Assembly (NCBI GenBank): GCA_013335095.1
Contig: JAAXWF010000002.1
Location: forward strand, 261-64,260
DNA length: 64,000 nt
Source: a candidate division WWE3 bacterium
GTDB lineage: Bacteria > Patescibacteriota > 4484-211 > GCA-002791395
Direction: 5' to 3'
The position numbers and the translations under genes are program-made. Below are positions 597-63,982 of the stretch, piece by piece. The number at the start of each line of letters is the position of its first letter. Position 1 is the stretch's first letter. The notes beneath the pieces are model-generated. The model saw nothing but the letters and a program-made list of their open reading frames with translations, made no database searches and was not told the DNA's origin.

Positions 597-686
597 GTCT
601 CACCTATTGTACTCGGTGACACCATATTCGCCAAGCAGGAATAATAATGCCGGACAGATCATGGTGAGTGATCTATCCGGCTGTTT

Positions 687-1052: not shown

Positions 1053-1178
1053 AGCGCCTCCTTCTTTCCGTGAGGTTCCATGCTCCCAAAGGGAGCTTAG
1101 CGTAAAAACGCGTACTGACTATTATACAAAATGAAAGCGAATATATTGACTAAGACAACAAAGTAAGTATAAAATGAT

Positions 1179-1388
1179 GTGATGAACTGGTTAACTCAAA
1201 AGAGATTTTTATATCTTTCAATTATTTTAGTAGTATTTTTAATTGCCATACTTTCGATTGGATATATCTTCGAGTTCATCCCAGCAGATGAGTTTCAGTC
1301 ATATGTTTACAAAACAGTTGCCGCAGCGGGTGTGTTTATTTTGACCGCTGGCATAATAACCTTTTTTGCGAGGCCTCAAAATAAATAA
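1179..1388 (+). CDS. Small 2-TM membrane protein (hypothetical)
   Basis: 69-aa ORF with two hydrophobic helices. A TTGACT-16-TATAAA promoter-like element lies just upstream. No homology recognised. Confidence 0.3.
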   Translation: MMNWLTQKRFLYLSIILVVFLIAILSIGYIFEFIPADEFQSYVYKTVAAAGVFILTAGIITFFARPQNK

Positions 1389-1397
1389 AAAACTTAA

Positions 1398-2579: not shown

Positions 2580-2709
2580 TTGTTTTTTTATCGTAGAATA
2601 TTCTTCCTGATGTTACAAGAAGTAGGTTCTTTTTCTAACTTTGCGATGGTAGTATTATCCTATAACTGTAAAACACTGGATGCCAGATAATCTGGCGAGT
2701 AGGAGGTCT

Positions 2710-2937
2710 ATGTCACCGACAATTAGGGTGAGCGAAGGCACTATGGCCAAGATTCGGCAACTAGCCGAAGAACTGGGGGGAGTGACGATGTCGCAACTGG
2801 TGGACGATGCAGTCGAAGCATATCGTCGCCAGAAAATCCTCGAAGAAGCGAACAGGCAATATGCCCTGATTCGTGATCAGGAACCCGGGCTTCACCCGGA
2901 GTGGCCTTGGCTTGGGCCAGACCAAGTCCTAATCTAA
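2710..2937 (+). CDS. Ribbon-helix-helix (CopG/antitoxin-like) DNA-binding protein
   Basis: An AGGAGG RBS lies 5 nt before the ATG at 2710 (protein begins MSPTIRVSEGTMAKIRQLAEELGGV...). The pattern of a beta-strand followed by two helices is typical of RHH. Local GC is elevated, about 55%. No toxin partner is adjacent. Confidence 0.5.
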   Translation: MSPTIRVSEGTMAKIRQLAEELGGVTMSQLVDDAVEAYRRQKILEEANRQYALIRDQEPGLHPEWPWLGPDQVLI

Positions 2938-3022
2938 AGTTGAAGAGAAACCAACATGCGCTGGGACCACAAATCCCGGCGCTTTTTTTCCCAAAAAATG
3001 AATAATTGAATTGGTCATGAAA

Positions 3023-3100
<78 letters not shown>

Positions 3101-3154
3101 AAAACAGGACATTATTATAACGCTAATCTCACATACAAAAACAGGTATAATATC

Positions 3155-4447
3155 TTGGTGCCAAAACTACCAATATCAAATTTAACCAAAACCATTGGAC
3201 TTAATACTATTTATCAAGTTTTTGGCCGTTTTATAACAGCAATCACTGGATTATGGATCACCAGGTTAGTAATTAGCCACATGGGCGTTGATGGGTACGG
3301 GACATATCAAATCGCGATAAACTACGTCACCATATTCTGGATGCTTACCGACTTTGGCCTCAATGCGGTTGTAGTACGAGAAATGTCGGCGAATCCCGAA
3401 AAAGAAAATCAATTATTCGGTGGACTCGTAACCATGCGCACCGTGCTTAGCCTCATCATCATGATTATATCCTCCGCCGTACTCGTATTCTTGCCATACG
3501 CAATCGAACTCAAAATGGCAATCTTAATCGGAACGATCTCAATCATGACCCAAGGGATCAAAGGAGCAACACACGGTCTTCTACAATCACGGTTACGGTA
3601 CGATCTACAATTCTACGCAAGCTTTTGGGGATCGTTGGCTTTCGTTATTGCTACGTACGTCGTCTTACTTAAATATCCCGGAACAATACCGCTTGTAATT
3701 GCTTTTATCATAGGACAAATCATAATGATGGTTATTTCAGTATGGCAAGCCCACAACCTTTCCAGATTCCATTTTGATTGGAATAAAAAACAACTCAAGG
3801 AACTCTCAATAGCCACACTCCCACTGGGTATCTCACTTTTATTTAACCTGGGAAACTTTAAAACAGACTCTTTCCTTCTTTCGGTATTACCGATGGCTCA
3901 ATTTAGCAACGCGCAGGCAGTCGGAATGTACAATATCGCGTATAAATTTTTTGAATTCGGACTAATTGTCCCAACATTTTTTATGAATGCGGTATACCCA
4001 GTTATGGTCAAAGCCCATCATGAATCGCATAAAAAATTCTATTCGGTAGCATTTAAAGCATGGGGAGTACTCTTTACTGTCGGAGTTGCCGGAGCTCTTT
4101 TAACATGGGTACTCGCGCCGTACGTTATTCGGATTGTTGCCGACACCCCAGATTTTGGCCCTGCCGTTACCGCACTACGAATTCTGATGTCGGCCGCCCC
4201 AATTTTCTTCTCATCATCGCTATTAATGTGGGTGCTCTTAACACTTAATGGACAAAAGAAATTGATGTGGATATACGCTATCGCATTTGTTTTTAACGTC
4301 AGTGCCAACTTATTCTTGATTCCACGGTATTCATTTTATGGATCAGCGGTTGTTACAGGCGCATCAGAATTTATAATACTACTGTTACTCATGATTACAG
4401 TTTATCCAACGTGGAAAAAAGACCATACCCATTCGGCCCATGAATAA
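3155..4447 (+). CDS. Polysaccharide biosynthesis protein / Wzx-type flippase (MOP superfamily)
   Basis: 430 aa with about 12-14 TM helices and the typical oligosaccharide-flippase architecture. It is first in an operon with glycosyltransferases. Confidence 0.7.
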   Translation: MVPKLPISNLTKTIGLNTIYQVFGRFITAITGLWITRLVISHMGVDGYGTYQIAINYVTIFWMLTDFGLNAVVVREMSANPEKENQLFGGLVTMRTVLSLIIMIISSAVLVFLPYAIELKMAILIGTISIMTQGIKGATHGLLQSRLRYDLQFYASFWGSLAFVIATYVVLLKYPGTIPLVIAFIIGQIIMMVISVWQAHNLSRFHFDWNKKQLKELSIATLPLGISLLFNLGNFKTDSFLLSVLPMAQFSNAQAVGMYNIAYKFFEFGLIVPTFFMNAVYPVMVKAHHESHKKFYSVAFKAWGVLFTVGVAGALLTWVLAPYVIRIVADTPDFGPAVTALRILMSAAPIFFSSSLLMWVLLTLNGQKKLMWIYAIAFVFNVSANLFLIPRYSFYGSAVVTGASEFIILLLLMITVYPTWKKDHTHSAHE

Positions 4448-16046: not shown

Positions 16047-17495
16047 ATGTCATCTCAACCCGTGGCCACGATGGACGACCTGATAGGTCCGACCTTATCG
16101 ATCTACCCCCAGCCAGTTCTTGAAAGTGCGAAACCCGTAATCTGGGTCTGGCAAATGATTACGAGAGGGGGTAATAAGGGAGTTCCTGGAGATTCTCTGA
16201 AAGATGAGATCAAGCTACTTTTTCCCGACCTTCATGAGGATGAAGGGGAAAATAGTGCGTTCGCCATTTTTGCCGAGTTACGGAATCTAACTGTCGTTCG
16301 GGCAGAACGTGCAATGGAGGGGGTCGGGGCATGGCAATATTACGCCATTGTTCCCTATGATGAAAACCATCCTGCTCTACGTGGGCATCTGAACAAACTC
16401 CTGGTCAGATACTTCGTCGAAACGATGATAAGATCAGGGACGCAACGAAGTGATCAACTTCGCATTGGGATCGAGAAACGCTTGGCCGAGATCCACATCA
16501 CCGTCGAGCGCAAATGGCTCGACAGCGTTTTTGGTGGTGCTCTCAGGTATCTCAAAAATCGCGGCGTAATCGCCCGATCGGCCGAATCAACGGCTAAAGT
16601 TTCGGCATGGGAAATGCGCCGAACGGAAGAGGCACCCGAGGATGAGTTGGGGACTGATGATGGTCCTGGAACCTCAAGCCCTACACCGATCGACACATTG
16701 ACCGCATTGCTGTTGTCCAAACCATCTCATAGTGGGGCAACAATCAATGAATGTCGCGCAAAGGTTATCAGCGTACACCGAGATCAGTTTACAACGGCTG
16801 ATGAGGTGACGGCATGGTTACTTCAGGTACTGCAGACCGACACGAACATCGTGTTGTATCCGCCTACAATCGACAGTTACTTCGAAGGCTGTCAGCTGGT
16901 ATATCATGCTACTCGACTGCCACAATCAATTGAAGGGTTTAATCAGACCCTCAATCGGGCAATCAGTGCGATTTCGGATCTTATCGAAATACGCGCGGTC
17001 TGTACTCTGGCTGAGGTAACTCAGTTCATTGAATCGCCAAGTGGGCGTATGCTGATACCTGGAATCCTCTACAATGAGGTCCGTGATCGGATGAGACCGA
17101 AGTTCATGCGGGCGTACATTTTGCTGATCCTGGATCGTATTGTCGCATCAGGGTTAGCCTGGATAGATAACGACGGCCCAGAGACAAAATACGTCACGCA
17201 ACTCAGATCGAGCACAGCGGCGAGCGAACCGGCTGAAGCACCACGGCCTCCGGTTTTAGATGATGCTCTGGTAAATTCGGATCACCAGAGCGCATTTACC
17301 TGGCCGGTTGCTCAACCCAGTAGTCCATCGGTATCAGCCGCAAAGACAGATACGATCGCTTCACAGATCTCGGAAATCCTGCTCAGCGGGGTTGAGCAGG
17401 TCAGTGCCGTGATACCGGGCCTACCGAGTCCAGTAGTGATTCCGGTTAATCCAAAGACTCAGCGAGTAATGATCATCGTGATCGCGACTGAGTAA
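16047..17495 (+). CDS. Hypothetical soluble protein (GC-elevated)
   Basis: 482-aa ORF with an AAAGGAG RBS. It has no TM segment and no recognisable motif. GC is about 50%, against about 40% in the flanking gat and dnaE genes. A hairpin follows at 17504-17530. Confidence 0.5.
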   Translation: MSSQPVATMDDLIGPTLSIYPQPVLESAKPVIWVWQMITRGGNKGVPGDSLKDEIKLLFPDLHEDEGENSAFAIFAELRNLTVVRAERAMEGVGAWQYYAIVPYDENHPALRGHLNKLLVRYFVETMIRSGTQRSDQLRIGIEKRLAEIHITVERKWLDSVFGGALRYLKNRGVIARSAESTAKVSAWEMRRTEEAPEDELGTDDGPGTSSPTPIDTLTALLLSKPSHSGATINECRAKVISVHRDQFTTADEVTAWLLQVLQTDTNIVLYPPTIDSYFEGCQLVYHATRLPQSIEGFNQTLNRAISAISDLIEIRAVCTLAEVTQFIESPSGRMLIPGILYNEVRDRMRPKFMRAYILLILDRIVASGLAWIDNDGPETKYVTQLRSSTAASEPAEAPRPPVLDDALVNSDHQSAFTWPVAQPSSPSVSAAKTDTIASQISEILLSGVEQVSAVIPGLPSPVVIPVNPKTQRVMIIVIATE

Positions 17496-29035: not shown

Positions 29036-29219
29036 TACAATGCATTTTTTAGCACCTCTACAATTGAATTTATCTACCATTTTTGCTGTTCAAATAAAGA
29101 TCTGCCGGCGTACTGATGTCAGGTAAAAACGTGACCTCAATACGCATGCAGATCGACAGATCTAGCAGCGGACAAGTATATTGAGTAATCGGCACAAGGA
29201 ACTGTTCAAGGAGGGACGT

Positions 29220-31040
29220 ATGGGAAGAGTGCTATCTCTGGCACGTAGGTACGCAGTCGGAGCAGCTGCCTTTGCATTGATCGCAGTGATTGCGCTTGGT
29301 GCTTCGGCGCTACTAAGCAGTGGCAATAGTGGGCAGCAATTGGCATTGGCAGGGGCGGTAACCACAACGCCGACTGTGCCAGTGGCCAGTGTTAGTCCGT
29401 CATCAGCCGCAGTAACGCTAACACCATCTTTGTCCTCGGATACGCCAACAGCAGGGGGAACCACCGCCAGCATCGACATTCAGTTCGCTCAGTCGAGCCC
29501 AACCGTAGCCCGTACCGCCGGTACGGTTACCGCAGATACCGCTGCAGGTGCATATCCAGCACCGGCGACAGCGGTCACCGATACAGTAACGAGAACGCCT
29601 CAGCCAGCGGTAGCGTCTGTGACAGCAACGCTCACACCGCTCTCCACCACAACAACGGTGCATTCCACTCTGGTGATCAGCCAGACAAATCTCAATGAGA
29701 TGTCTGGAGGGGTTGCGTCGATCTGGGATTATGAAGGAGGGCTGAGAAAAGCGACCGATGGGGAACTTCAAGTTCTAACGGATACGCTGCTGCTTCCCCA
29801 TATGGCCACGAATCTGCAAACGATCGATAAGCCTCCGTTTGCACTCGGTCAGTTTCGGCTAATCCAGCCGACGACTGATGTTACGTGCGCTGAACCGCGG
29901 CTGCAAATGCCGCATATTGGGGAAACGCCAGACAAGCTGCACATTAACTTGTCGATCCAGACAAGTAACTGTGCGTTTGTGTTCACCTTGGCTGGTACGA
30001 CAAACATCAGTCCGACGCTTCGGCCCGCATTGATGATGAACGGAGGTAGTACCCACCCGGTCTCGGTGACGCTCACTGTCCTGACAGGGAGCATGAGCAG
30101 CAAGACGGTAAACGTACCGCTCAATACCGTTAAGCAAGCAATCCCGCTTGTGCCGGACATGGCGATCGAAGTAACAATTCCGGCTAACACCTTTGTGAGC
30201 CTCGACTACGCCGACACGGCTTTGTTCGGGGTCGAGGATGTAACTGGCGTTCCAGCTGATGCTGAAACGCGATTGTTCCTCAGCGATGCAGCCCCACGTG
30301 ACGAGCCCGCGCAAAAAGCATGGGAACTTGATCAGTGGACCTATGCCGCAACCGGCCTGGCAACATACCAGAAGCAGAATGGGCAAACGCTGGATGGTAT
30401 ACCAGACAACGGTGCCCACCTCGTCTTCTCTCAGCTGGCCATGGTCGGCCCGACAAACGAGAAGTATCCCTATGGTGGCGATTCGTGTGCGTGGCATACG
30501 ATGACACCTCGCGGGGGCGGGTTCTGGTTTGCCAATGCGGATAGTCGGATCACCAATGCGCTGTGCGGCAGTATTGCTGTACGAGGCCAGGGCCGATACG
30601 TCATCACCGGTGTCTCACAGGAAAATCTGCGGCACTGGGGTGCAGATGGGGACCCGCGCGTAGCGTTCGGCATCGCGGGCCATATGAGTGGTCGCTATCG
30701 GATCACCATCGCTCAAGTTGATCTGTCCACCTCTGATACCAAGGAGGAGTTGGTTGTCACTAAAGTGATCACCTCGACTCCCTGGCTTCAGTTGACGACT
30801 GGCCGCCCTCAATTCCAGGCGGACTGGAAGGGCGAGGCTTTCGTGGTGATCGAGTTCGATACCCCCTTTGGGCAGATCGATATCGGTCCCACAGCTGGAG
30901 CAACCAGCGTTGATGTCCGGTGGCCCACCAAGCCGCAGGACGCGCCGCAGGCGTCAAATCAACTCGATCTGGTTAGAACCAGCCTACCACCAGCCACCAC
31001 AAATAGGGGGCCAGTAGTGGCTACGCCGGGAGGTAGATAA
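29220..31040 (+). CDS. Secreted/anchored Thr-Ala-Ser-rich protein (GC-rich island gene)
   Basis: AAGGAGG RBS. The protein begins MGRVLSLARRYAVGAAAFALIAVIALGASALL, a signal anchor. About 150 aa of T/A/S/V/P low complexity follow, then about 400 aa of globular sequence. Local GC is about 60%. Confidence 0.55.
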   Translation: MGRVLSLARRYAVGAAAFALIAVIALGASALLSSGNSGQQLALAGAVTTTPTVPVASVSPSSAAVTLTPSLSSDTPTAGGTTASIDIQFAQSSPTVARTAGTVTADTAAGAYPAPATAVTDTVTRTPQPAVASVTATLTPLSTTTTVHSTLVISQTNLNEMSGGVASIWDYEGGLRKATDGELQVLTDTLLLPHMATNLQTIDKPPFALGQFRLIQPTTDVTCAEPRLQMPHIGETPDKLHINLSIQTSNCAFVFTLAGTTNISPTLRPALMMNGGSTHPVSVTLTVLTGSMSSKTVNVPLNTVKQAIPLVPDMAIEVTIPANTFVSLDYADTALFGVEDVTGVPADAETRLFLSDAAPRDEPAQKAWELDQWTYAATGLATYQKQNGQTLDGIPDNGAHLVFSQLAMVGPTNEKYPYGGDSCAWHTMTPRGGGFWFANADSRITNALCGSIAVRGQGRYVITGVSQENLRHWGADGDPRVAFGIAGHMSGRYRITIAQVDLSTSDTKEELVVTKVITSTPWLQLTTGRPQFQADWKGEAFVVIEFDTPFGQIDIGPTAGATSVDVRWPTKPQDAPQASNQLDLVRTSLPPATTNRGPVVATPGGR

Positions 31041-31174: not shown

Positions 31175-32392
31175 ATGGGCAAACAGAGACGCTGGAGATT
31201 AGTGTACTCACTAATCATCTTGACGGGAGTCGTGTTACTGGGAGGCCACCAATACGCACGGGCATCAACGAAATACTTTTCGATGCTGCCAATGGTCCGA
31301 ACCTACCAGGCAGCCCAGCACACCCCGCAGACGGTAGAATACTGTGCGGAGGGGCTAGGGCAGCTCTATAACCAGAGCATCGGTGTATGCGGTAACAACG
31401 AAGCAGCACTGGCTCTGGAGATGCGCGCGAGCCTGGAGGGTGGCGAGGTCAAGCCGGGTGAGTTTGCCGGCCCAATCTATGGGGTTCAGCTCCAAATCAG
31501 TAGTCGACATGCACAAAATATCGGCTACCCCAATGGAGCGACACTCTACGAACTGGGCGGAAGCAAACGATTCCCAGAGCGGGATCCCATAGCCAGTACG
31601 CCGGTAACATTTGATCTGCCATCAGGCAGATATGGTTTGGGGCAATTCGTTGAGCCACCGCCCACCACGCCGACGACAGCGACACCGACTTCGACCACGG
31701 CACCGCCAACACCAAGTCCAACGACGACGGCAACAGCCACGCCTACACCGACGTATTGTCAGTCGGTGGGTATGCTCGATATCCCCGGATGGAATCACCA
31801 CATCTGTGGGGATCAGCAGATGGTGGATCTCGCCCAAGGATTGCTTCCGGGCCAGGTACGTGCCGGAACATTCCAGATTTGGCTCAAGGAACTACCTGCG
31901 GATCATGGTTATCCATCATATGGGGCCATGTTCTACGGGAATAGCCCTGGGGTAGAGGAGATGTCGGTACCGATTCCACTTGGTCAGCAGGTTACAATCC
32001 AGCTGTCGAGTGACTCGGGTGGAGTGAATCCGATCTGGGGGCTCGGACCCGGACCACTGCCAGTTGACGCCTGCCCTGGGGATTTGGTCAACCAGCTCAC
32101 GCGGATGTCCACCGGAGTCTGTGGCGACACCGCAGCTGAGACAGCAAACACACGGGAGTCGGCCCAGTTAGGTCAACTGGTGATTGCTGAGGTCAACGAG
32201 ACGGTACGCCTATGGATTAATCCAGACTTCGCCGGTAAAAATCCTGGCCATGGGTTTGTTAGCGGTGCATGTTTGTATAAGGCGGCATCAACCGATGCCG
32301 TCTATATCCCCTCTGGGGGATCACCAGGGCTGTTTATACTCAGCCAGGGTACGTGGGGAATAAGCACAGACACGAGCTGCCATCAGAGCTAG
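31175..32392 (+). CDS. Secreted protein with TPTT linker (GC-rich island gene)
   Basis: Signal peptide MGKQRRWRLVYSLIILTGVVLLGG. A central linker PPPTTPTTATPTSTTAPPTPSPTTTATATPTPT separates two Cys-containing domains. GC is about 60%. A terminator hairpin lies at 32418-32448. Confidence 0.55.
   Translation: MGKQRRWRLVYSLIILTGVVLLGGHQYARASTKYFSMLPMVRTYQAAQHTPQTVEYCAEGLGQLYNQSIGVCGNNEAALALEMRASLEGGEVKPGEFAGPIYGVQLQISSRHAQNIGYPNGATLYELGGSKRFPERDPIASTPVTFDLPSGRYGLGQFVEPPPTTPTTATPTSTTAPPTPSPTTTATATPTPTYCQSVGMLDIPGWNHHICGDQQMVDLAQGLLPGQVRAGTFQIWLKELPADHGYPSYGAMFYGNSPGVEEMSVPIPLGQQVTIQLSSDSGGVNPIWGLGPGPLPVDACPGDLVNQLTRMSTGVCGDTAAETANTRESAQLGQLVIAEVNETVRLWINPDFAGKNPGHGFVSGACLYKAASTDAVYIPSGGSPGLFILSQGTWGISTDTSCHQS
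31650..31760 (+). repeat. Low-complexity ACN/CCN codon repeat encoding a Thr/Pro/Ala linker
   Basis: ccaccacgccgacgacagcgacaccgacttcgaccacggcaccgccaacaccaagtccaacgacgacggcaacagccacgcctacaccgacg, inside ORF 31175..32392. Confidence 0.7.
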
Positions 32393-49633: not shown

Positions 49634-49832
49634 ATGTTTGTCTTATAGTATAAAACAACATACTATATTTGCACCTAATACAAATCATCAGGGGGCAGAA
49701 TGGATATGGATTTATTCGATATTCACTTTGCCCTCTAATGAGAGCTGGGCATTTTGCCCATGGAAGCTCGATTTGGAGTGGTTTGTAAAGCCACACTGAT
49801 AGGAGGGGTTGAATACCCCAGGAGGTGTCCAG

Positions 49833-50846
49833 ATGGTTGACATTCTGCATCGCGAAGATACTCGCGAAGAGACTGTTCGTACACGTCGCGCACGCCCTGA
49901 GCAGTTGGGGGCGGTGATTCCGCCCAGTGTCGAGGGCCTAACGCCATGGAGGGAGGATCCCCGGTACGAATACCGGACCCCGGAGAACCTTCCGTGGCCG
50001 GCGGCATTCATCTGGGTAGTCAACACAGCGCCTCGCAGGCCTGGCGACAAGAACACCCAAATGAGCCGGCGTCAGGGGGAGATCCTCTGGGCCGCGCCGA
50101 TGTGGTCCGTCTCGATGCGTAAGACCATTCCGCCGACGGCGGAGAGGGCTCTGAGCATCGCCCGGCGCAAGAAGGGGCCGGAGATTCGGCCCGACCAGGT
50201 GAGTTTCGCCCTGGCGATCTACAAGAAGGGGCGTATTCGCCCCCATTCAGATCTCCTGGGGGAACCAGCGGGGAACTACTTCGAGCTGGTATTCACTCTG
50301 AATCCCCTCGAGATCGAGGCGATTCTGATGAATCCCGATAACGATGCTACGATGCTTCTGGAGAAGCTCGACGCTCAGGGATACCTGGGTGTTCCGGCTG
50401 ATCCGAGCCGAGCCGAGGAGATCAAGGACCGCGTGCTACAGCAGATGGTCACGTTGATCAAGGCAGCAGGTCGTACCGACCTGCTCGAAGTGAGCAACAC
50501 GGCAGACAGCAGCACTCCCAGCATCGGCGAGGGGGATCTGTTGATCACCGCCGCTGATATCGAGGCCGCACGTGGTTACGTGAAGGCAGCGCAGTTCGCA
50601 ATGCCGACACAGTCACAGGTTGCGACGACTCTGGCCCTGCTGGAGAAGAAGGGGCGTACCCTCGTCCCGACTGCCCTGCTGGCCGATCTGCCGGAGGAGC
50701 TGCTGACGAAGTACGGCCTCAAGCGGCCCGACTCAGTCAGTCCGGCTCCCGCCGCGGTCAAGCCTGCGGTTGCGCCCGCAGAGCCGCCGGCTCCCGCAAA
50801 GCAGCCGGCTTCGTCCGCCCTGGCCGCCCTGCTGGGCGGTAATTAA
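49833..50846 (+). CDS. Hypothetical protein with Pro/Ala-rich C-terminal tail (island gene A)
   Basis: GGAGG lies 7 nt upstream of the ATG at 49833 (MVDILHREDTREETVRTRRARPEQ...). The ORF-track TTG at 49809 is rejected. The C-terminus is PAPAAVKPAVAPAEPPAPAKQPASS. GC is about 60%. Confidence 0.5.
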   Translation: MVDILHREDTREETVRTRRARPEQLGAVIPPSVEGLTPWREDPRYEYRTPENLPWPAAFIWVVNTAPRRPGDKNTQMSRRQGEILWAAPMWSVSMRKTIPPTAERALSIARRKKGPEIRPDQVSFALAIYKKGRIRPHSDLLGEPAGNYFELVFTLNPLEIEAILMNPDNDATMLLEKLDAQGYLGVPADPSRAEEIKDRVLQQMVTLIKAAGRTDLLEVSNTADSSTPSIGEGDLLITAADIEAARGYVKAAQFAMPTQSQVATTLALLEKKGRTLVPTALLADLPEELLTKYGLKRPDSVSPAPAAVKPAVAPAEPPAPAKQPASSALAALLGGN

Positions 50847-50884
50847 GCAGGGGATTAGGTTCGTGTTCGTCCGTTAGCAACAGT

Positions 50885-50914
50885 CCAAAGGCCACCTTGA
50901 GTGGTGGCCTTTGG
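50885..50914. terminator. Stem-loop (12-bp perfect stem) after island gene A
   Basis: CCAAAGGCCACC-ttgagt-GGTGGCCTTTGG. No clear U-tract. A 290-bp AT-rich spacer follows. Confidence 0.45.
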
Positions 50915-51225
50915 ACCACTCAATTAAATTATTGACCTTGTCAGTCTTTATGATCCAGAATCGTAAAGAGTGATAAGGTCGACAGACCAAACAATCTATG
51001 TAGGGTCGGTGCGGCCATATACACAAAACCAAATTTAAGACAGTTTGGTTTTTTTCATAATTGGTGTATAAGAATTATGTAATAAAACGCACATTTACAA
51101 AGATAAATACCACACTCAGAGGGACTATTAATGACAAGTAATATGCTCATTCATTAATTGTTTTTAATAGCCCCTTTGGGTGAAGCCGTTTTACGGCTTG
51201 TGGAAGTCTTTATCGGGAGGTGTCT

Positions 51226-51597
51226 ATGACACGGGTTAACAGGTTGCGACTGGCCTCAACAGTCGCAGCAGCATTCATGGCCGCAACGCTGGCCTTGGTG
51301 CTGCTCGTTGGGAGCGGGTCGGAATACACCGCCCGCGTCGGATTCGTGGTTACCATTCTAACCATCGCGTTAGTGCCAACGGCGCTGACCGCGGTGGTCG
51401 CATGGGTGGTGCCGCCAGTGCGCGCGTCATGGCGCACCTGGTACGGCACAAGCTTCGGAGGAGCGATCCTTTCGTCGGTAGCCATGTCGTTTAAGGGGGA
51501 GCTCTATGCCCCGCAACGGCAGGTTATCGTCGAGCAGGTCGAGACTCCAGCTGAGCCCGCTGGTCCGGACCCAGGCTATACCGTCATCAGCTACTAA
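51226..51597 (+). CDS. Small 3-TM membrane protein (island gene B), directly upstream of the rho-like gene
   Basis: GGGAGG RBS, then ATG at 51226 (MTRVNRLRLASTVAAAFMAATLALVLLV...). Three hydrophobic helices and a Pro/Glu C-terminal tail. The stop is 12 nt before the rho-like start. Confidence 0.45.
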   Translation: MTRVNRLRLASTVAAAFMAATLALVLLVGSGSEYTARVGFVVTILTIALVPTALTAVVAWVVPPVRASWRTWYGTSFGGAILSSVAMSFKGELYAPQRQVIVEQVETPAEPAGPDPGYTVISY

Positions 51598-51609
51598 AGG
51601 GGGCTGACA

Positions 51610-53193
51610 ATGAGCCCCAATGACGGCCTCGGCCTTAAAACAGGACCAAAGATCCCCAAGGGACTCGAGATGGCGTACGTGGCCTGGAGCGAAGCATCGC
51701 CCCAGGTCATCACACGCAAACCCCTCGGCGAATGGCCTGCTCGGCCAGAAAGTGCTATTTGGTACGCGGTACAGCTGGTCGAGCACCCGCAGACCAAAGA
51801 TATGGTTAGAGTCGCAAACATACCAGCGGAGGTAATCCAACGGTATGGACTGCGACCAGGGGATGAGGTTTTCGTCAAGGTCTGTCGGGACCCGAGGCTG
51901 GCGGAGCAGGATCCAATCCTATCCATCGATCCAGCCAAAGGTAAAGTCATGGGTATTCCCAACACCCCAGTGATGGGTCACGCTCGGGCACGAGTTGACC
52001 GAGAGGTGCAGGAGTTCCCCTCAGGGTGGATTCCGACCTATCGGTCAGGCTTAATCGGGCGGGTACTCGATCTCATTGCGGCGATCTTCTACGGAAGCCG
52101 CATGAGCCTGTTCGCGCCTCCGAAGGTCGGTAAGACGACCTTTCTGACAGCGCTGGCCCAGGGCATCCTGCTCTGGATCATGTCGCTGCCGTGGGGCGAA
52201 CGTTCGAAGTACCGTATGGCCTTTTTAGGTGTCGATGAACGGCCCGAGGAAACTCGGTTCCCTTTCGTTGACACAGTCTTCCCGGCTCCGTACGATCGCT
52301 CGCCGCAGTTCAAGCTGAGGCTGGTGGAATTGTACGTAGAATGGGTGAAGCGGCAAATCGAGTCCGGAATTCACGTGATTTGCTTCGTGGATTCGTTGAC
52401 TCGGTTGGGCATGTTCTTTAACATGGTCGTCCAATCAACGGGTGGATCACTTTCGGGTGGTCTTTCCAAAGAGGCCTTCGACCAGGTTCGACGAGTGTAT
52501 GGCATGCACGGTCTCTATCCTCCTGAAAAAGGGATGGGATCGGCGACGTGCATCGCCACAGTACTCATCGAGACGGGGAATAAAGCCGATGACATCATTG
52601 CCGAACAGCTCAAAGGGGCAGGCAATACGGATGTCATGATGAGTCGCGGCCTTGCGACTCAGGAGCTCTACCCCGCCGTTGTTATGTACCAGGCTGGGGA
52701 TAACCGCGGGAAAAAAGAAGCGGAAAGCTCCACGCGCAGGATGCACGAAGAACTCGCGCCGTTCTTCGGCTATACGGCGGACGTGATGCGTCGAAAAATT
52801 GCGTACCTCCGCCGCTGGCTTGATCCGGAGGCAAAGATGGAGGAGCAGAACCGACGCATCGTCGCACTCGCCCGAGGGATCGAGGATCCCGGGCAGGTGT
52901 GGTCGGCAATTGACCCGGAAGACTTTGACGCATCAGCAGCCGAACTGGCTGGCATGTGCGTCGACGAAGACGGTCAATGGGACCGATCAGCACGGAACAC
53001 GGTCAAAATCGCGTTTAACGCGACGATCGCAGTTCTATTTGATCGGGATCCGACTTTACTCTTGGCGACATGCAAACAAACGCTGGCTAAATTGGCACAA
53101 GCTGAAAAGATCAGCCTAAATGATCTTAAGCAGATAGGCCGCCAGCTGATACAAGCAGCAGACGAATTGGCTGACGTCAAGGGCAAACGGTAA
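51610..53193 (+). CDS. rho: Transcription termination factor Rho homologue (divergent, with about 110-aa C-terminal extension)
   Basis: By-eye alignment with E. coli Rho shows the following matches. [34 protein letters not shown] against [34 protein letters not shown] (P-loop). GVDERPEE against LIDERPEE (catalytic Glu). [19 protein letters not shown] against VIILLDSITRLARAYNTVV (Walker B). GGSLSGGLS against SGKVLTGGV (Q-loop). [38 protein letters not shown] against [46 protein letters not shown] against SGTRKEEL (Arg finger). OB-fold segment [16 protein letters not shown] against IRRFNLRTGDTISGKI. GGGGG RBS. Confidence 0.8.
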   Translation: [527 protein letters not shown]

Positions 53194-53199
53194 GAAACA

Positions 53200-53240
53200 C
53201 CTGTCGCAGCAGCAAACGCTGCGACAGGTTACTATTTTAA
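53200..53240 (+). terminator. Intrinsic terminator after rho-like gene
   Basis: CCTGTCGCAGC-agcaaac-GCTGCGACAGG is an 11-bp perfect stem, followed by TTACTATTTT. Confidence 0.7.
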
Positions 53241-53314
53241 TATTGTGGATTTAAAAAATCTGTTTTCTAACGGATTCTTTTAGTTCATAATGTCGCACAT
53301 TAAGAATATTGACT

Positions 53315-53388
53315 CACATGGGTCGGTTGTCATCATCATCGTTGGTGGTTACAACTGACCCATGTGGGTTGCCCTGGTTTAACCAGGG
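53315..53388 (+). promoter_or_regulatory. Two stem-loops/palindrome immediately upstream of island gene D
   Basis: A long imperfect hairpin at 53315-53366 has 10-bp perfect outer arms, CACATGGGTC...GACCCATGTG. The perfect palindrome CCCTGGTTTAACCAGGG at 53372-53388 abuts the ORF-track start. A TTGACT -35-like hexamer lies at 53309. Confidence 0.4.
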
Positions 53389-53412
53389 ATGGAGTTCACA
53401 CCGGAGGGTCAT

Positions 53413-54693
53413 ATGACTCAGCGTTTCGGACTGTTCCGAGAGAGGGTGGGACCCGGCCTACGGATTGCTGGCTACGCAAGCCTGGCGATCCTGTGGATTG
53501 TCGGTCTGTTGGCCTGGATCAACGGCGCAGGAGGGGAGGGGCCGCTATTTGGCCTCATCGTCCTGCTCTGGCCCACCATCCTGATCGCCCAGCACGTATT
53601 TCTCCGGCCGAGTGTCGGGTCGTATGTGCGGGTTGCGATCTGGATAGGGATGATCATCGCGATGTACACCTACTGGCAGGACGGGGAGGAGATCCCCGGA
53701 TTGCTCATGGGCATCGTGATGGGGTGGCTACCGGCATTAGTCGGCCTTAAAACGATCTTCACGATCGTCGAAGACCGCTGGCCAGACACAACCGAGGCAG
53801 TCAGCGAAAAGATGACGAAGACCCGGACTTACTTCCAGACCACGTCTGGATGGGTCATGCCCGTCATCTTGCTCGTGATTCTCATCATCATCGGCCTAAT
53901 GGCGATCGGCGAGTGGTGGTACGGCCCCGCCGTACTAATCACTGTCTTCATGATGATGTGGTCGGCGAACTGGATCATCTCGCTGACCTGGGTACCCAAA
54001 CGGGGACGCGACGTCCGGCCGGGAGAGGTCTACTACTACGAACGGCCGTACTGGCCGGGGTGGTGGGACCTGTACAAACAGCGCTGCTTTCCGGCGATCT
54101 GGGGCTCAAGGGAAAAAGAGGGAATGCCGCTGCAAGGCGGAATCCTCGGAATCTCTAGGGCACTGGGCTGGATCGCGCTAAACACCGGATGGGGTATCAT
54201 CCCCTTCGGGGTGCTGTGGCTGATCTCAATGGTCATCCTGGTACCGCTGTCGGCAGTGATCCTGCTGTTGCTCCTTGTGGTCTATACCCGGATTCACCTC
54301 CGGGAAGTGCGGATGATCACGACGGACGACAATGTCACCGTCTATATCTGCCGCGCATCGATCCATTGGTTCTGGGGGGTGTCGACTGAAGTTGTCTCGG
54401 CGCCAGGCAAGGACCTGAACGCCAGCCACTTCATGTCTCACCAGGACGGTCTAGGGCGTTACTGCCACTACGATCCGTCCGCCCTCAGAATTGGCTCCAC
54501 GGCTGAGGATCCCATCGGTCACACGATGTGGATGCTCGATGTGGCTAGGGTTGGGGACACCCATGTGAATGGCCCTCTGTTCAAGTACAACTTGGACAGG
54601 CGGGCGGCGTGGGTTAAGACCCCGCCGAACAACAGAGTCGAGCAGACCGCGGTGTTCGCCGTCAGGGACCGAGACGACGTCTCGGCCAACTGA
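53413..54693 (+). CDS. Polytopic membrane protein (about 8 TM) with C-terminal soluble domain (island gene D)
   Basis: GGAGGG RBS, then ATG at 53413 (MTQRFGLFRERVGPGLRIAGYASLAILWIVGLLAWI...). Multiple Trp-rich TM helices. A C-terminal domain of about 130 aa contains CRASIHWFWG...HYDPSALRIGSTAEDPIGH. GC is about 60%. Confidence 0.55.
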   Translation: MTQRFGLFRERVGPGLRIAGYASLAILWIVGLLAWINGAGGEGPLFGLIVLLWPTILIAQHVFLRPSVGSYVRVAIWIGMIIAMYTYWQDGEEIPGLLMGIVMGWLPALVGLKTIFTIVEDRWPDTTEAVSEKMTKTRTYFQTTSGWVMPVILLVILIIIGLMAIGEWWYGPAVLITVFMMMWSANWIISLTWVPKRGRDVRPGEVYYYERPYWPGWWDLYKQRCFPAIWGSREKEGMPLQGGILGISRALGWIALNTGWGIIPFGVLWLISMVILVPLSAVILLLLLVVYTRIHLREVRMITTDDNVTVYICRASIHWFWGVSTEVVSAPGKDLNASHFMSHQDGLGRYCHYDPSALRIGSTAEDPIGHTMWMLDVARVGDTHVNGPLFKYNLDRRAAWVKTPPNNRVEQTAVFAVRDRDDVSAN

Positions 54694-54705
54694 CATATAT
54701 TGGAT

Positions 54706-54737
54706 GGGAGAGAGGCGACTCTCTCCCTTTTTTTTTA
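54706..54737 (+). terminator. Intrinsic terminator after island gene D
   Basis: GGGAGAGAG-gcga-CTCTCTCCC, followed by T10. Confidence 0.8.
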
Positions 54738-54752
54738 TCTAAGGAGGAGCCA

Positions 54753-56636
54753 GTGGACATTCGCCTGGCATATCTAGGAATCGCCCTGCTCGCCATGTTG
54801 TGTGCTTGTGGCGAAGACCCGAGGGTCCGCGATCAGCGGCTATTCGACGAGTGGTGCCAACAGCAAAAGGCGCCAGTCGTTAAGATCGAAGTTCGTGACA
54901 TGATGGAGCAGTCTGCTCAGCTGGTCACGACCGTTCCGGATGGATTAACAGGCACCGTGTCATTCGGACCTGTTAATACCGAGATTTGGGCGACCCCGCC
55001 GTTTTCTGTCACCGGGAGCTTTAGTCAGGTGATGAATCTGACAAACATTCCCGATGGACATTACTGGGCGTTCCTCGAGGTAACGAAGGAATACTTCGCC
55101 CCCGAAGGGAAGTTCCAGTACGATTGGGGCGCTTGCCGACAAACCGGAAGGGCGACCGCCGACCTAATCGTCGACCGGGCGCCGCCGAAGGCCGAAATAA
55201 CTGCCAAGCTGCTGGATCAAAGCAGCTTCGAGCTCGTTATTACGGCGTTTGATCTGTCGGGGATCAAGTCGATTGCCTTAACTGGCGTCGATTATCAGAT
55301 CGCACCGAATCAGTTGTTGGTGCTTGGACCGGTGACGTTCCCGATCTCATACACCAAGGTGTACGATCGAAACATCGTCATCACCATGACCGACAACAGA
55401 GGGCATAATTGGTCAGGCTTCGCCTTAGTGCCTCTCCAGCCTAATCGCTGGGAGTTACGGAGCGTAAGTCCCTGGCACCTGTGGGGATTCTCACGGGAGG
55501 AGGGTAACCTGATCGGTGTCGCGCCATACAGTAAGGAAGCTCCGACAATGCCCCTCTGGGGGTATGGCTGGGGACGTGAATGGCGACAGATCGATCAGAA
55601 CCGGGAAACTGGTAAGAGAGCTTCAACCAATCCAATCTACTATGTGGTAATTGGAGCTCTACTCGCGGTGCTGGTCTCGCTCGTGATCGTCCGAAGGTAT
55701 GCCCTTCATGTTCATAATCGGCTGGTCCGGATTAATGAGCAAAGGGAACCCTGGAGACAAAAAATGGGCGAAATGCGCGAGGCTATCGCTCAGCGCCAGT
55801 GGTCGAGTGCTCGGCAGCTCTACCATGAGCTGTTAGCTGATTGGCAGGTTATGGCGACCGAAGAGGACAATTCCTGGTTTGACCAGGTGCGTACTCAGAT
55901 GAGCCAGGGCCTGATCAACGACGACAAGCATGGCCAACGCGCGGCCAGGGCAATAATCCAGGGAGACTGGACCAATGCCTTTAGGGCAATTCAGGCAATG
56001 CCTGCAGATTGGGCTGGAAGGTTCAATCGCAACGACTTGCTTGAAGAGATCGCGTTAACCGCCTTACGAGATTCGTTATGGGCGGTTGCCTACCGAGCAA
56101 TGAACGCTTTGCCAGCAGAATGGACTCATGGAGAGTTCACCAGGCAGGCAGCGTTGGAGCGGATTGCCGGTCAATGGGCAGAGCAGAGAATCGTCGAGTG
56201 GCATTCGCGCTGCTACGACTTCGCCTCATTGGCGAAAGATGAGTCACCCGATGCGGTGCTCACCTTATTCTCGGCCTTGAGAGATAAACTGTCGTACTAC
56301 CACGTCCTGGGCTTCACCTCGGAAGAGGAAGCGAAGCCAGATGAGATCTCAATCACCGAGATCGGTAGACGATGGTCGCTGCTGATGGCCTTCTTCGCCC
56401 CCGAGCAAACACAGGACGGGGTGAACGAAGACCAGATAGCACGAGCGCGACTGTATTTTAACCTCGACCGAGAGGTGCCTGATTCAGTCGTGGCGGCAAT
56501 GATCCTAAGGGAGCCGTGGCCAACGATCGAGTTGGCTTATGCCCTCCTGAAAGATCAGGAACGAAAGTTGGAGTATGATGAGGTATTGATGCACGCCCGG
56601 ACACCACGGGCGGCAACCACGCAGGCGACTGCGTAA
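54753..56636 (+). CDS. Bitopic lipoprotein-like protein: extracytoplasmic beta-rich domain, one TM, cytoplasmic Trp-rich tandem helical repeats (island gene E)
   Basis: TAAGGAGG RBS, then a GTG start. The signal/lipobox-like N-terminus is MDIRLAYLGIALLAMLCACGED. A TM helix YYVVIGALLAVLVSLVIVRRY lies at about residue 290. The cytoplasmic region has an internal repeat, ...RAIQAMPADWAGRF... and ...RAMNALPAEWTHGEF.... Confidence 0.55.
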   Translation: MDIRLAYLGIALLAMLCACGEDPRVRDQRLFDEWCQQQKAPVVKIEVRDMMEQSAQLVTTVPDGLTGTVSFGPVNTEIWATPPFSVTGSFSQVMNLTNIPDGHYWAFLEVTKEYFAPEGKFQYDWGACRQTGRATADLIVDRAPPKAEITAKLLDQSSFELVITAFDLSGIKSIALTGVDYQIAPNQLLVLGPVTFPISYTKVYDRNIVITMTDNRGHNWSGFALVPLQPNRWELRSVSPWHLWGFSREEGNLIGVAPYSKEAPTMPLWGYGWGREWRQIDQNRETGKRASTNPIYYVVIGALLAVLVSLVIVRRYALHVHNRLVRINEQREPWRQKMGEMREAIAQRQWSSARQLYHELLADWQVMATEEDNSWFDQVRTQMSQGLINDDKHGQRAARAIIQGDWTNAFRAIQAMPADWAGRFNRNDLLEEIALTALRDSLWAVAYRAMNALPAEWTHGEFTRQAALERIAGQWAEQRIVEWHSRCYDFASLAKDESPDAVLTLFSALRDKLSYYHVLGFTSEEEAKPDEISITEIGRRWSLLMAFFAPEQTQDGVNEDQIARARLYFNLDREVPDSVVAAMILREPWPTIELAYALLKDQERKLEYDEVLMHARTPRAATTQATA

Positions 56637-56658
56637 AATACTAAGGTCATACATCAAA

Positions 56659-56688
56659 CCGGCCACTGGGAAACCAGTGGCCTTTTTT
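56659..56688 (+). terminator. Intrinsic terminator after island gene E
   Basis: GGCCACTGG-gaaa-CCAGTGGCC, followed by TTTTTT. Confidence 0.8.
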
Positions 56689-56814
56689 ATATAATTAACG
56701 TTTAAACGATGTCGTAAGATTGTAAGAATTTTTCGAGATCGCTTAAGACGCCGATCAACCACGCCCCTTAAATTTAGCCCTCGGGCCGGGCAGTCTAGCG
56801 CAAGGAGGTTGACC

Positions 56815-57453
56815 ATGATTGGTCAATCATTAACGCAGGCAAACGCAGTTCCACCTACGCCGCCGCGATGGAGGTGCCACCATGAATGGATGGCAACACT
56901 TGGACTCAAAACACCACCGGGATTATTTCAGCCGCATCCTGAAATTGCTGGACTGGTGTTTTTGCAGGTAATCAGACCTTATCGAGGGAGTTCAATTATC
57001 GAGTACATCGATATTGAAGAGTTCGCCGAATTAGGCGGACATATTCCATCAATGAGGCCAATCCATCAGTTGGGAGTATATCTCTCCCGGCTCTATCGAA
57101 TGGAGCGCCTCTTGGCACTCGAGCTAAGATCCATGGGAGTGGACGTGTACGTTCGCCCCGAAGGAGAAAGTTGGGCACAGTCTGATTTGGAGCAGATCGC
57201 ACATCAGGCGGCCGTGAACAACGGTATCATCGCCGTGTACCGCGACCAGCTCACCGCGACCTCAGCCGCGATCAATCATTTAACCCGGCTCCATGAAGTC
57301 GGTCAGTTGGCCCTGCTAAACAGCTGTCCCGGACAAAACGGCACAACCGATGCCTGTGGACAGGACATAATGGAACGCCGAATGGTTCATCCACCGGCGA
57401 TATTATGCACCGCCTGCCAGAGTCGACTGGATAGACCCCAGGTTCGCAGTTAA
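56815..57453 (+). CDS. Hypothetical soluble protein (island gene F)
   Basis: AGGAGG RBS, then ATG at 56815 (MIGQSLTQANAVPPTPPRWRCHHEW...). It has four Cys in a C...C and CTAC arrangement near its ends. GC is about 58%. Confidence 0.45.
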   Translation: MIGQSLTQANAVPPTPPRWRCHHEWMATLGLKTPPGLFQPHPEIAGLVFLQVIRPYRGSSIIEYIDIEEFAELGGHIPSMRPIHQLGVYLSRLYRMERLLALELRSMGVDVYVRPEGESWAQSDLEQIAHQAAVNNGIIAVYRDQLTATSAAINHLTRLHEVGQLALLNSCPGQNGTTDACGQDIMERRMVHPPAILCTACQSRLDRPQVRS

Positions 57454-57459
57454 CAAATC

Positions 57460-59788: not shown

Positions 59789-60388
59789 ATGGTGAACGTC
59801 ATGACTGGCCCGGATCCAAGCCAATCGCTGCGAGGCGATCGATTCTGGGCCGTGGGTGTCCAACTATGGCTGGATCAATTTGATCCGAAAAACGCTTCGG
59901 CAGATGGCCCAAAGTTAACTTTCGAGCAGATCACCAAAGCGTATGGAGAACTGATAACCGGCCGTTTTCAGGCTTGGTTAGCAGGCAAACTAGGAATAGC
60001 AGCGCCGACATACAATGACTACGAAGCTCGGCGCTACCTTTCGCAGGCAATGGAGATGCACTGTGGAAGGATGGTACCTCGGACGCGAGCCGGTTGGGAG
60101 AGATCTCTTCCGATTGTCGCTGGCTGGATTGTTGATACCCTAAATAAATATGTTAGGGTAACGGATCTTGTTATGTTAATCGAAGATCCGACTGGCTCAC
60201 GGATTCCCGGGGTATGGCGTTATGAAAAAACGATCACCCAAGGAATATTAGATGTTTGGGAATTACATAAAGCCCAAAAAATTGGGTCCGATAACGAAAT
60301 CGTTGTCGAGGCTATCGGTGGGACTCAGCGCGAGGCCCGAAGTGTTGCGGTACTACTGTACTATATCGATAGCGAATGGATCGACTAA
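59789..60388 (+). CDS. Hypothetical protein inserted between uvrB and uvrA (GC-elevated)
   Basis: GGAAGGAGG RBS and a TATAAT box upstream. 199 aa with no recognised motif. A 10-bp perfect terminator hairpin, GGGCAAACAC-gacatact-GTGTTTGCCC, lies at 60395-60422. GC is about 52%. Confidence 0.5.
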   Translation: MVNVMTGPDPSQSLRGDRFWAVGVQLWLDQFDPKNASADGPKLTFEQITKAYGELITGRFQAWLAGKLGIAAPTYNDYEARRYLSQAMEMHCGRMVPRTRAGWERSLPIVAGWIVDTLNKYVRVTDLVMLIEDPTGSRIPGVWRYEKTITQGILDVWELHKAQKIGSDNEIVVEAIGGTQREARSVAVLLYYIDSEWID

Positions 60389-63352: not shown

Positions 63353-63982
63353 TTAATTCTCCGACGTGGAGGCCGCAATCCGTTGCCGATGCCTGATTAA
63401 CTCCTCGATCATCTCCGAGGGCCGCTGATAACGCGGAGACGGATAGAGGCTACGATCCGGCTGTTCTGCCAGAGTCGTAAGGCCCAGGGCAATAAGATCG
63501 ACGGGCTCAAGCAAGCAGCGCCCGGCGAACCAGACGCTATCAAGCTGATGATCGTTCACGCCAAAATATTGGACATGAACTCCGTACTCCGTCACCTCGA
63601 TAGTGACGCGTCCGTAAAATTCGTGCTTAAGCCGAATCTCGATATTTACTCCGCCCACGGAGACCTCGATCGGATCGAGGAACAGGATATGGGCGACTTC
63701 GAGGTAAAGATCCCCAATAAACGCGTACAGCGTTTCGGACGGAGCAATCAAGAATGGGCGATGCCCACACAGGACCTCCATCCGTTCGGCAAGATCGCCA
63801 CTTCCGGCTCGAAACCAGTCCAACAGGTCCCAATCCGCACGGAAGTAATCCATCATGGCATGAAACACCAGATGGAGCGGAACACGCTGGTCAAGGACCT
63901 GAACGAGCACCTCATGCGGATCGTCCAGGACAATGTAGTCCCACTCCGCTAGCACCATATATGGTGCCCCTTCACGCATCAA
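63353..63982 (-). CDS. Hypothetical protein (GC-elevated), convergent with uvrA near window edge
   Basis: ORF of 209 aa or more with no motif recognised. GC is about 55%. The true start may lie beyond the annotated Met or beyond the window end. Confidence 0.35.
   Translation of the reverse strand: MMREGAPYMVLAEWDYIVLDDPHEVLVQVLDQRVPLHLVFHAMMDYFRADWDLLDWFRAGSGDLAERMEVLCGHRPFLIAPSETLYAFIGDLYLEVAHILFLDPIEVSVGGVNIEIRLKHEFYGRVTIEVTEYGVHVQYFGVNDHQLDSVWFAGRCLLEPVDLIALGLTTLAEQPDRSLYPSPRYQRPSEMIEELIRHRQRIAASTSEN

Follow-up and report, generated by a model that had tools for sequence, protein, structure and literature searches.

Few bacterial proteins are as conserved as Rho. Moreira et al. (2024; PMC11347177) distinguished four types: Type 1 is the typical protein; Type 2 has N-terminal or insertion regions; Type 3, represented by 33 sequences, has a C-terminal extension (107 additional amino acids, aa, in Paenibacillus psychroresistens); and Type 4, often the second copy in high-GC genomes, lacks the N-terminal domain. 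All four types conserve the RNA-binding domain and the catalytic residues (PMC11347177). Here we describe a Rho-like protein encoded in a 64-kb stretch of DNA (hereafter the window) from a candidate division WWE3 bacterium (assembly GCA_013335095.1, contig JAAXWF010000002.1). An earlier note on this DNA had called its gene a divergent Rho, carried on foreign DNA and specifying a likely active hexameric RNA translocase. We find the protein to be an intact, extremely diverged Rho-family RecA-type ring ATPase. Judged by alignment, it superficially combines Type 4 with Type 3 while failing the defining features of each. We give about an even chance to its being an accessory, element-encoded, Rho-derived ring ATPase with non-canonical RNA loading, and not a housekeeping terminator.

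The homology to Rho is real. The protein matched the NCBIfam Rho models PRK09376 (E 4.3e-44, 150.9 bits against a curated cut-off of 315) and TIGR00767 (E 6e-41, 140.6 bits against 509), as well as the short-form model NF041509, paralog_Rho2 (E 4e-40, 138.3 bits against 628). As we read these profile scores, the significant E-values denote homology to Rho and not equivalog membership. Thermus Rho (8hsj, E 4e-39) was the best sequence match among solved structures, and ATP-synt_ab was the sole Pfam family above its cut-off (E 1.2e-11, residues 151-358). Models of FliI/SctN reached at best 55.8 bits (FliI, E 3e-15), against family cut-offs of 380-750 bits. An AlphaFold2 monomer model, built on an alignment of 103 Rho proteins, had a mean predicted local distance difference test (pLDDT) score of 70.6, with values of 85-95 in the ATPase core. 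When this model was searched with Foldseek, the top 50 matches were all Rho, with template modelling scores of 0.65-0.80 normalised on the target. Homology and fold together place the protein in the Rho superfamily; functional membership of the Rho family is not demonstrable from them.

Residues were compared with those of Escherichia coli Rho in four ways: by phmmer to 1pv4 and 8pex, by MAFFT alignment with the 103 Rho proteins, with a profile hidden Markov model (HMM), and by hmmalign. Over residues 85-367, the E. coli sequence used is the same as in the PDB alignment. The four methods were concordant on which residues are kept and which are lost. The reference proteins come from many phyla and are the best hits of the query, not a random sample; of the 126 columns with at least 85% conservation in Rho, the Rho-like protein keeps 64 (51%), whereas the 103 Rho proteins themselves keep 81-100% (median 96%). 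Identity of its ATPase core to any Rho averages 35% and peaks at 40%, compared with pairwise core identities of at least 51% among the 103.

Against this background of divergence, the P-loop, the catalytic glutamate of DERPEE and Walker B, all named in the earlier note, proved to be in register with E. coli Rho (Table 1). In Walker A, K172, G174, K175 and T176 correspond to E. coli K181, G183, K184 and T185, and P171 is kept too. The DERPEE columns are invariant in the 103 Rho proteins and identical here (D209-E214), E210 and R211 being the equivalents of E. coli E211 and R212. Walker B retains D261 and R265 (E. coli D265 and R269, the latter having the arginine-switch role described in bioRxiv 10.1101/069559), along with S262 and T264. 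The Q and R loops claimed earlier are there in part: the LSGG core of the Q-loop (L281, S282, G283, G284) and L319, T322 and K325 of the R-loop are kept, T322 and K325 matching E. coli T323 and K326, but the basic residue of the Q-loop, E. coli K283 (K or R in at least 95% of Rho), is G279. K335, G336, G338 and N339 (KGxGN) are also kept in register, and Y354 occupies the place of the adenine-stacking F355. All 11 residues of the bicyclomycin/ATP pocket are identical to those of Rho (residue list from PMC11347177, roles from PMC11718236). The kept set covers every cis ATP-site and bicyclomycin-pocket residue listed in the literature (PMC11718236, PMC11347177, bioRxiv 10.1101/069559). By alignment, nothing is missing from the cis half of the ATP site. 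That the ATP pocket and the cores of the pore loops are identical at 35% identity points to long purifying selection on nucleotide binding and on the pore; such selective conservation argues against a simple decaying relic.

The arginine finger of Rho acts on the neighbouring subunit (PMC11718236). The earlier note had seen it in the segment DNRGKKE, an assignment that did not survive alignment: the finger column (E. coli R366), which holds Arg in 103/103 Rho proteins, holds N365 in the query; T365 of Rho is replaced by D364; and Arg366 falls in the +1 column (AGDNRGKKE versus SGTRKEE). Phmmer, MAFFT, the profile HMM and hmmalign all agreed on this register. An alternative register at residues 372-381, which by eye is SxTRREELL-like, was rejected on a Rho profile score of -1.9 bits against 41.5 for the E. 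coli control. The adjacent Arg366 could substitute for the in-register finger. Ten residues identical in 103/103 Rho proteins are changed (P167A, G169F, Q172S, R272M, R305G, E334Q, T338A, R353E, T365D and R366N, in E. coli numbering). The invariant R272 is M268 of the query, three residues past Walker B, and the near-invariant D359 (96% of Rho) is V. Of the two losses that the earlier note had named as refuting its call, that of the finger is seen in register (Arg366 possibly standing in for it), and the catalytic glutamate E210 is kept; its phrase 'all catalytic motifs' was too strong.

The RNA-binding head has fared far worse than the cis ATP site. The alignment to the Rho profile begins only at model position 101, which is residue 70, and the 69 residues before it were modelled at pLDDT below 50. 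No match to Pfam PF07498 (Rho_N) was found in the protein even at E <= 10, so the earlier observation that the Rho N-terminal bundle is lacking stands; by itself this is no bar to Rho membership, because the accepted Type 4 Rho proteins also lack Rho_N. The loss goes further, into the oligonucleotide-binding (OB) domain. A 16-column gap lies opposite the stretch DGxGFLRxxxYLP that bears the ribonucleoprotein motif RNP1, meaning that this segment is deleted, and the other reading frames of the gene hold no OB or RNP1 remnant. What is left of the domain (pLDDT about 81 for residues 70-90) matched Pfam PF07497 (Rho_RNA_bind) at 13.7 bits (E 0.055) against a cut-off of 27, and over model positions 29-53 of 73 only. 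The primary-site contacts Y80, E108 and Y110 are replaced by N70, A98 and Q100, respectively. On these alignments nothing is left of the RNP1 strand or of the RNA contacts of the primary site, and the OB segment claimed in the earlier note is borne out for the helix and beta4 part alone. Residues 71-91 (51820-51882, + strand) also matched the MazE/AbrB (SpoVT-AbrB) Pfam family at 20.2 bits (E 6e-4), which is higher than the 13.7 bits for Rho_RNA_bind; both scores are below cut-off, and the MazE/AbrB match is probably a generic helix-turn-strand similarity.

At the other end, 161 residues follow the finger column, compared with 53 in E. coli Rho. The excess of 108 aa agrees with the length of about 110 aa given in the earlier note, which had pictured the tail as a continuation past the point where E. 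coli Rho ends. The Rho profile, however, scored -1.9 bits on residues 369-445, whereas the control, residues 362-419 of E. coli Rho, scored 41.5 bits (E 4e-15). Since the Rho C-terminal subdomain is thus undetectable past residue 366, the tail is not an appendix on a complete Rho. Residues 367-527 were predicted to be all-helical, whether modelled within the full-length protein or by themselves, at pLDDT 50-70 (55.7 by themselves). The helical, Arg/Ala-rich character ascribed to the tail holds for the helices and is divided for the composition: residues 367-431 are Arg-rich (14%), and residues 432-527 are Ala-rich (17%) and acidic (net charge -4). When the tail by itself served as the query, no match came up at E <= 0.01, and the exhaustive search described below gave none to residues 400-527, so that the tail is not a common lineage-specific Rho extension.

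How the protein stands to the described systems follows from these comparisons. With canonical (Type 1) Rho it shares the RecA fold, Walker A and B, DERPEE, the arginine switch, the R-loop lysine, LSGG and the bicyclomycin pocket; it differs in having no Rho_N, no RNP1, no in-register finger and no recognisable C-terminal subdomain. Type 4 Rho and paralog_Rho2 resemble it in the absence of the helical bundle, in a high-GC coding sequence and in the character of an accessory copy. However, conservation in Type 4 and Group B proteins extends to the bicyclomycin pocket, the catalytic residues and the RNA-binding domain (PMC11347177), whereas little of that domain is left in the query and its finger is shifted, and Type 4 proteins have no long C-terminal region such as the 161 aa found here. 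Type 3 Rho has a similar extra C-terminal length (about 108 aa in the query). Type 3 extensions follow a complete Rho and are typically compositionally biased or disordered, unlike the query region, which is predicted to be helical, replaces the subdomain and has no homolog. The query fails the Type 3 definition because its three-domain core is incomplete. More distantly, FliI/SctN and F1 beta (ATP-synt_ab) share the superfamily and the nucleotide-binding domain but do not have Q and R loops of the Rho type, which are retained in the query.

The boundaries of the open reading frame (ORF) given in the earlier note, 51610-53193 on the + strand and 527 aa, agree exactly with the ORF list. The gene is carried in GenBank on a 358,632-bp contig. 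Its ATG is preceded at 6 nt by a Shine-Dalgarno sequence, AGGGGG, and the frame runs uninterrupted through all 527 codons. The codon-position GC signature of coding DNA is present in every segment, both termini included, and is the same there as in the core. A frameshift origin of the novel termini was accordingly rejected: the other frames have no Rho signal and the termini have the coding GC signature. Judged on its intact frame, Shine-Dalgarno sequence, coding GC, freedom from frameshift remnants and own terminator hairpin, the gene looks functional. The upstream neighbour, gene B, ends with a stop codon 12 nt before the Rho-like ATG, a gap from which one operon is probable. Since hairpin terminators follow gene A, the Rho-like gene, gene D and gene E, B and the Rho-like gene make up a two-gene unit, of which the hairpin past the Rho-like stop codon is the probable terminator. 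A promoter candidate in the spacer upstream of the pair (TTGACC-18-CAGAAT) agrees with the consensus at 9 of 12 positions; it is weak, the consensus match being all that marks it. Within this AT-rich A/B spacer of 379 nt (50847-51225) there are also two hairpins, one of 14 bp and perfect (50883-50916), the other at 51018-51059, and the spacer gave no Rfam family at the gathering threshold.

Table 1. Positions of the Rho-like gene, its parts and its neighbours in the window (TM, transmembrane; RBS, ribosome-binding site)
Feature	Coordinates	Strand	Description
Rho-like gene	51610..53193	+	GenBank NTV30934.1 (exact match), HGA91_03085, annotated 'hypothetical protein', candidate division WWE3
Residues 1-69	51610..51816	+	No detectable homology; replaces Rho_N bundle and OB strands beta1-beta3; RNP1 GFGFLR missing
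OB-domain remnant	51817..51939	+	Residues 70-110; helix and beta4/beta5; RNA-contacting aromatics absent
RecA-type ATPase core, Rho family	51982..52707	+	Residues 125-366; ATP-synt_ab, pLDDT 85-95, Foldseek
Walker A / P-loop APPKVGKT	52114..52137	+	Residues 169-176; in register with E. coli Rho
DERPEE	52234..52251	+	Residues 209-214; catalytic Glu E210, Arg valve R211
Walker B VDSLTR	52387..52404	+	Residues 260-265; arginine switch R265
Q-loop equivalent	52429..52467	+	Residues 274-286
R-loop equivalent ETGNK	52570..52584	+	Residues 321-325
Arg-finger position D-N-R	52699..52707	+	Residues 364-366; invariant T-R of Rho is D-N here
C-terminal region	52708..53190	+	Residues 367-527; 161-aa helical region with no detectable homolog; replaces 53-aa Rho C-terminal subdomain
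Hairpin	53199..53229	+	12-13 bp stem; 6 nt past Rho-like stop codon
Sigma-70-like promoter candidate	50932..50961	+	In AT-rich spacer (379 nt) before gene B and the Rho-like gene
High-GC insertion block	49700..57455	+	Genes A, B, Rho-like, D, E, F; between host VTT/DedA gene and uvrB
Gene A		+	345 aa; no family hit
Gene B	51226..51597	+	123 aa; two predicted TM helices (TM-like 12-30, 42-60); GGGAGG RBS
Gene D		+	434 aa; at least 6 TM segments
Gene E	54753-56636	+	627 aa; lipobox-like N-terminus (LLAMLCACG); one central TM segment
Gene F	56809..57453	+	214 aa; C-terminal TraR/DksA-type zinc-finger motif, first Cys is Thr

Close relatives of the protein were not found, and it stands alone among 15 billion proteins. 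When 5.8 billion clustered proteins were searched by a word index, the sole match above 40% identity was NTV30934.1 itself. An exhaustive phmmer search of 1.84 billion representatives returned the protein itself and then a flat plateau of ordinary Rho proteins at 116-136 bits, whose matches were confined to residues 70-368; among these representatives there was no protein matching residues 1-65 or 400-527. Overall, the homology searches returned solely ordinary Rho at 29-39% identity, and tblastn of phage and plasmid collections likewise found no close relative, only ordinary Rho at about 30% identity. The nominal best matches include Rho proteins of 372-374 aa that lack Rho_N, one such cluster being from Gemmatimonadales. 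Because the plateau spans many phyla and the nominal best matches lead by too small a margin, assignment of a donor is unreliable; an actinobacterial donor, one that the earlier note had proposed to look into, is not indicated.

The foreign origin of the DNA is borne out. The gene has a GC content of 0.56 and a third-codon-position GC content (GC3) of 0.63, compared with a GC3 of about 0.3 for host housekeeping genes, and it lies in a block of about 7.9 kb with GC 0.53-0.63 and GC3 0.54-0.78. In a related metagenome-assembled genome (MAG; L004), genes for a histidine kinase, VTT/DedA, UvrB and UvrA occur in the same order, and there VTT and UvrB are only 94 bp apart; the block is therefore an insertion, and the relative has the empty site. 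An assembly chimera seems unlikely on this evidence: the GC steps fall at ORF ends, the left junction of the block is bridged by a Logan assembly made independently from the same run, and syntenic host genes lie on both sides. The block gave no sign of an integrase, of a tRNA at its borders, or of direct or inverted repeats flanking it. A phage or defence origin was rejected, as PHROGs and PADLOC gave no meaningful match for any island protein. The spacers within the block are AT-rich (about 0.36), with host-style hairpin and T-run terminators.

The neighbours A, B, D, E and F gave nothing above threshold in Pfam, NCBIfam, PHROGs or PADLOC. The length of gene B, 123 aa, is the same in the Logan gene call. 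The gene E protein is a strict singleton; its helical cytoplasmic half contains a J-domain-like stretch, 'SYYHVLGF', without the HPD motif, and its family matches (CbpA, RNAP delta) are only very weak. Gene F has the zinc-finger motif TDACGQDIMERRMVHPPAILCTACQ at residues 180-210 and matched Pfam zf-dskA_traR (E 0.0077), NCBIfam DksA_like (E 0.0046) and PHROG 54 (E 0.0084). It also aligned weakly to F-plasmid TraR (6n57_M), beyond which PDB sequence searches with the E and F proteins found nothing significant. From these matches, gene F may encode a second RNA-polymerase-directed factor in the same block. No canonical rho gene was present in the 64-kb window or in 80 fetched UvrB loci, and we found no literature on Rho in the candidate phyla radiation (CPR)/Patescibacteria.

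We favour the accessory ring ATPase, derived from Rho and loaded on RNA in a non-canonical way, because the ATP pocket and the pore are selectively kept, the primary RNA site is lost, and the trans, inter-subunit side is altered. Such a protein would still bind ATP and would probably form a ring, RNA being threaded past pore loops of the Rho type, with ATP turnover hinging on Arg366 serving as a trans finger shifted by one residue. Canonical loading on C-rich rut sites would be impossible for it. Loading, targeting or regulation would instead go through the novel N-terminal 69 residues, the 161-aa C-terminal region or partners from the island, and the two-TM protein B or the TraR/DksA-like protein F could be such partners; the protein would act on transcription or RNA. 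Several of the observations weigh against this reading. The protein falls well short of the 81% minimum of Rho-conserved columns kept by genuine Rho, such that lost ATPase coupling or ring assembly is a real possibility. The finger column holds N365, and R272M, R305G, E334Q, T338A, R353E, D359V and Q-loop K283G are further changes at invariant or near-invariant positions. Both termini were modelled at low confidence. The protein is a singleton, with no comparative support for selection, and comes from one MAG and one sequencing run; no conserved gene neighbourhood backs any partner, and the TraR/DksA scores of gene F are all below curated cut-offs. Some of these same points suggest an inactive relic, that is, a Rho gene on foreign DNA that has lost motor function and is drifting, its product a pseudo-enzyme or the gene near loss. 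The 51% retention, the loss of the in-register finger, of RNP1, of Q-loop K283 and of several invariant Arg and Glu residues, the undetectable C-terminal subdomain and the setting of a singleton amid orphan genes would all fit. Yet the 527-codon frame is uninterrupted and has an RBS and a terminator, the termini keep coding GC, and a cis ATP site, pocket and pore-loop cores that are identical at 35% identity would not be expected under neutral drift; we consider a relic unlikely.

The protein might alternatively be a fully active hexameric Rho terminator with odd termini, perhaps the working Rho of the cell. The cis ATP site and R-loop are intact, the fold is that of Rho, an Arg sits next to the finger column, and the window has no other rho gene; moreover, Type 4 proteins without the N-terminal domain and Type 3 proteins with an extension of about 107 aa are considered functional (PMC11347177). 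However, the known variant types conserve the RNA-binding domain and catalytic residues (PMC11347177), whereas here RNP1 and the primary contacts have been lost, the finger has shifted register, and there are changes at seven other near-invariant residues. The scores are less than half of every curated cut-off (151/315, 141/509 and 138/628 bits), the gene came in with foreign DNA that a relative does not have at the syntenic site, and a housekeeping Rho would not be a singleton among 15 billion proteins. We regard this explanation as improbable, and the 'likely active hexameric RNA translocase' of the earlier note as an overstatement given the finger, the missing primary RNA site and the changed invariant residues. 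A Rho antagonist, an element-encoded mimic that co-assembles or competes with host Rho and poisons mixed hexamers, with anti-termination favouring the island, would account for an intact cis site combined with an altered trans finger, altered interface-side invariants and a deleted primary RNA site. Rho paralogs have been suggested to form hetero-hexamers (PMC11347177), targeting of Rho by mobile elements is known, Psu being an example (PMC11718236), and a TraR/DksA-like gene lies in the same block. On the other hand, there is no evidence of a Rho in the host, as the window has none and no literature on Rho in CPR bacteria was found; co-assembly with a host Rho is doubtful at 35% core identity, and phage and plasmid collections offer no precedent for such a mimic. 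This wholly inferential explanation seems to us very unlikely. FliI and type III secretion system ATPases dock on membrane machines, and a Rho-derived ring might by analogy work with the membrane proteins B, D and E as a translocation ATPase, since FliI/SctN is in the same superfamily (E 3e-15), the gene pairs with two-TM B, and D (at least 6 TM segments) and E (lipobox, one TM segment) lie downstream. But Rho is far closer to the protein than FliI/SctN is (151 versus 56 bits) and the RNA pore loops of Rho are kept; D and E have their own terminators, hence are separate transcription units, and the neighbours are orphans with no known machinery. We hold such a role to be the least likely of these explanations. 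A bolder form of the favoured accessory ATPase can also be framed, namely a functional Rho-derived motor of an undescribed CPR/Patescibacteria element, in which the rut-binding head and the C-terminal subdomain were exchanged for targeting modules and which would serve either as a decoy or poison, or as a translocase tethered to a partner (B or F); we rate it quite improbable.

High-GC ORFs recur elsewhere in the window, at 16047-17495, 29181-31040, 31175-32392, 59789-60388 and 63353-63982 (- strand), in addition to 49809-57453. All window ORFs with GC3 >= 0.48 lack a Pfam family, whereas those with GC3 of about 0.3 are all recognisable housekeeping genes (PpsA, enolase, DnaE, UvrA, UvrB, glycosyltransferase). 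Paralogy among the high-GC orphan ORFs was considered, and none was found. The host is a 39% GC CPR genome with several separate orphan high-GC genes scattered through it. The ORF at 59789-60388 (+ strand; 199 aa, GC 0.50) lies between uvrB and uvrA, where L004 has a gap of 86 bp and three other relatives (L002, L005, L006) have differing inserts of 1.7-3.1 kb; given these varied inserts, the intergenic site looks like a recurrent insertion point. The second high-GC block (29181-31040 and 31175-32392, + strand) encodes two orphan proteins, each with an N-terminal hydrophobic segment, which look secreted or surface-exposed; one of them has long Thr/Ala/Pro-rich linkers such as PPPTTPTTATPTSTTAPPTPSPTTTATATPTPT. 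A related CPR MAG (L003, JALWZS010000018.1) has at 167-4243 a block of ORFs with GC 0.49-0.59 in a genome of GC 0.36-0.40, with no homology to the island of the Rho-like gene. In the high-GC patch at 2418-4022 of another (L010), ORFs on the two strands overlap, and the patch may be no more than an rRNA gene.

The practical weight of the finding is limited, since it rests on one sequence that has no relatives and was recovered from one metagenome-assembled genome. The Rho-like protein nevertheless illustrates the extent of remodelling open to the Rho scaffold. As an active enzyme it would amount to a natural separation-of-function variant, dividing what the ring motor needs from what terminator recognition needs, and if it were an antagonist or a tethered translocase, it would be the first element-encoded Rho mimic. 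Its location is a hint that minimal CPR genomes receive mobile DNA equipped with transcription-modulating factors of its own.

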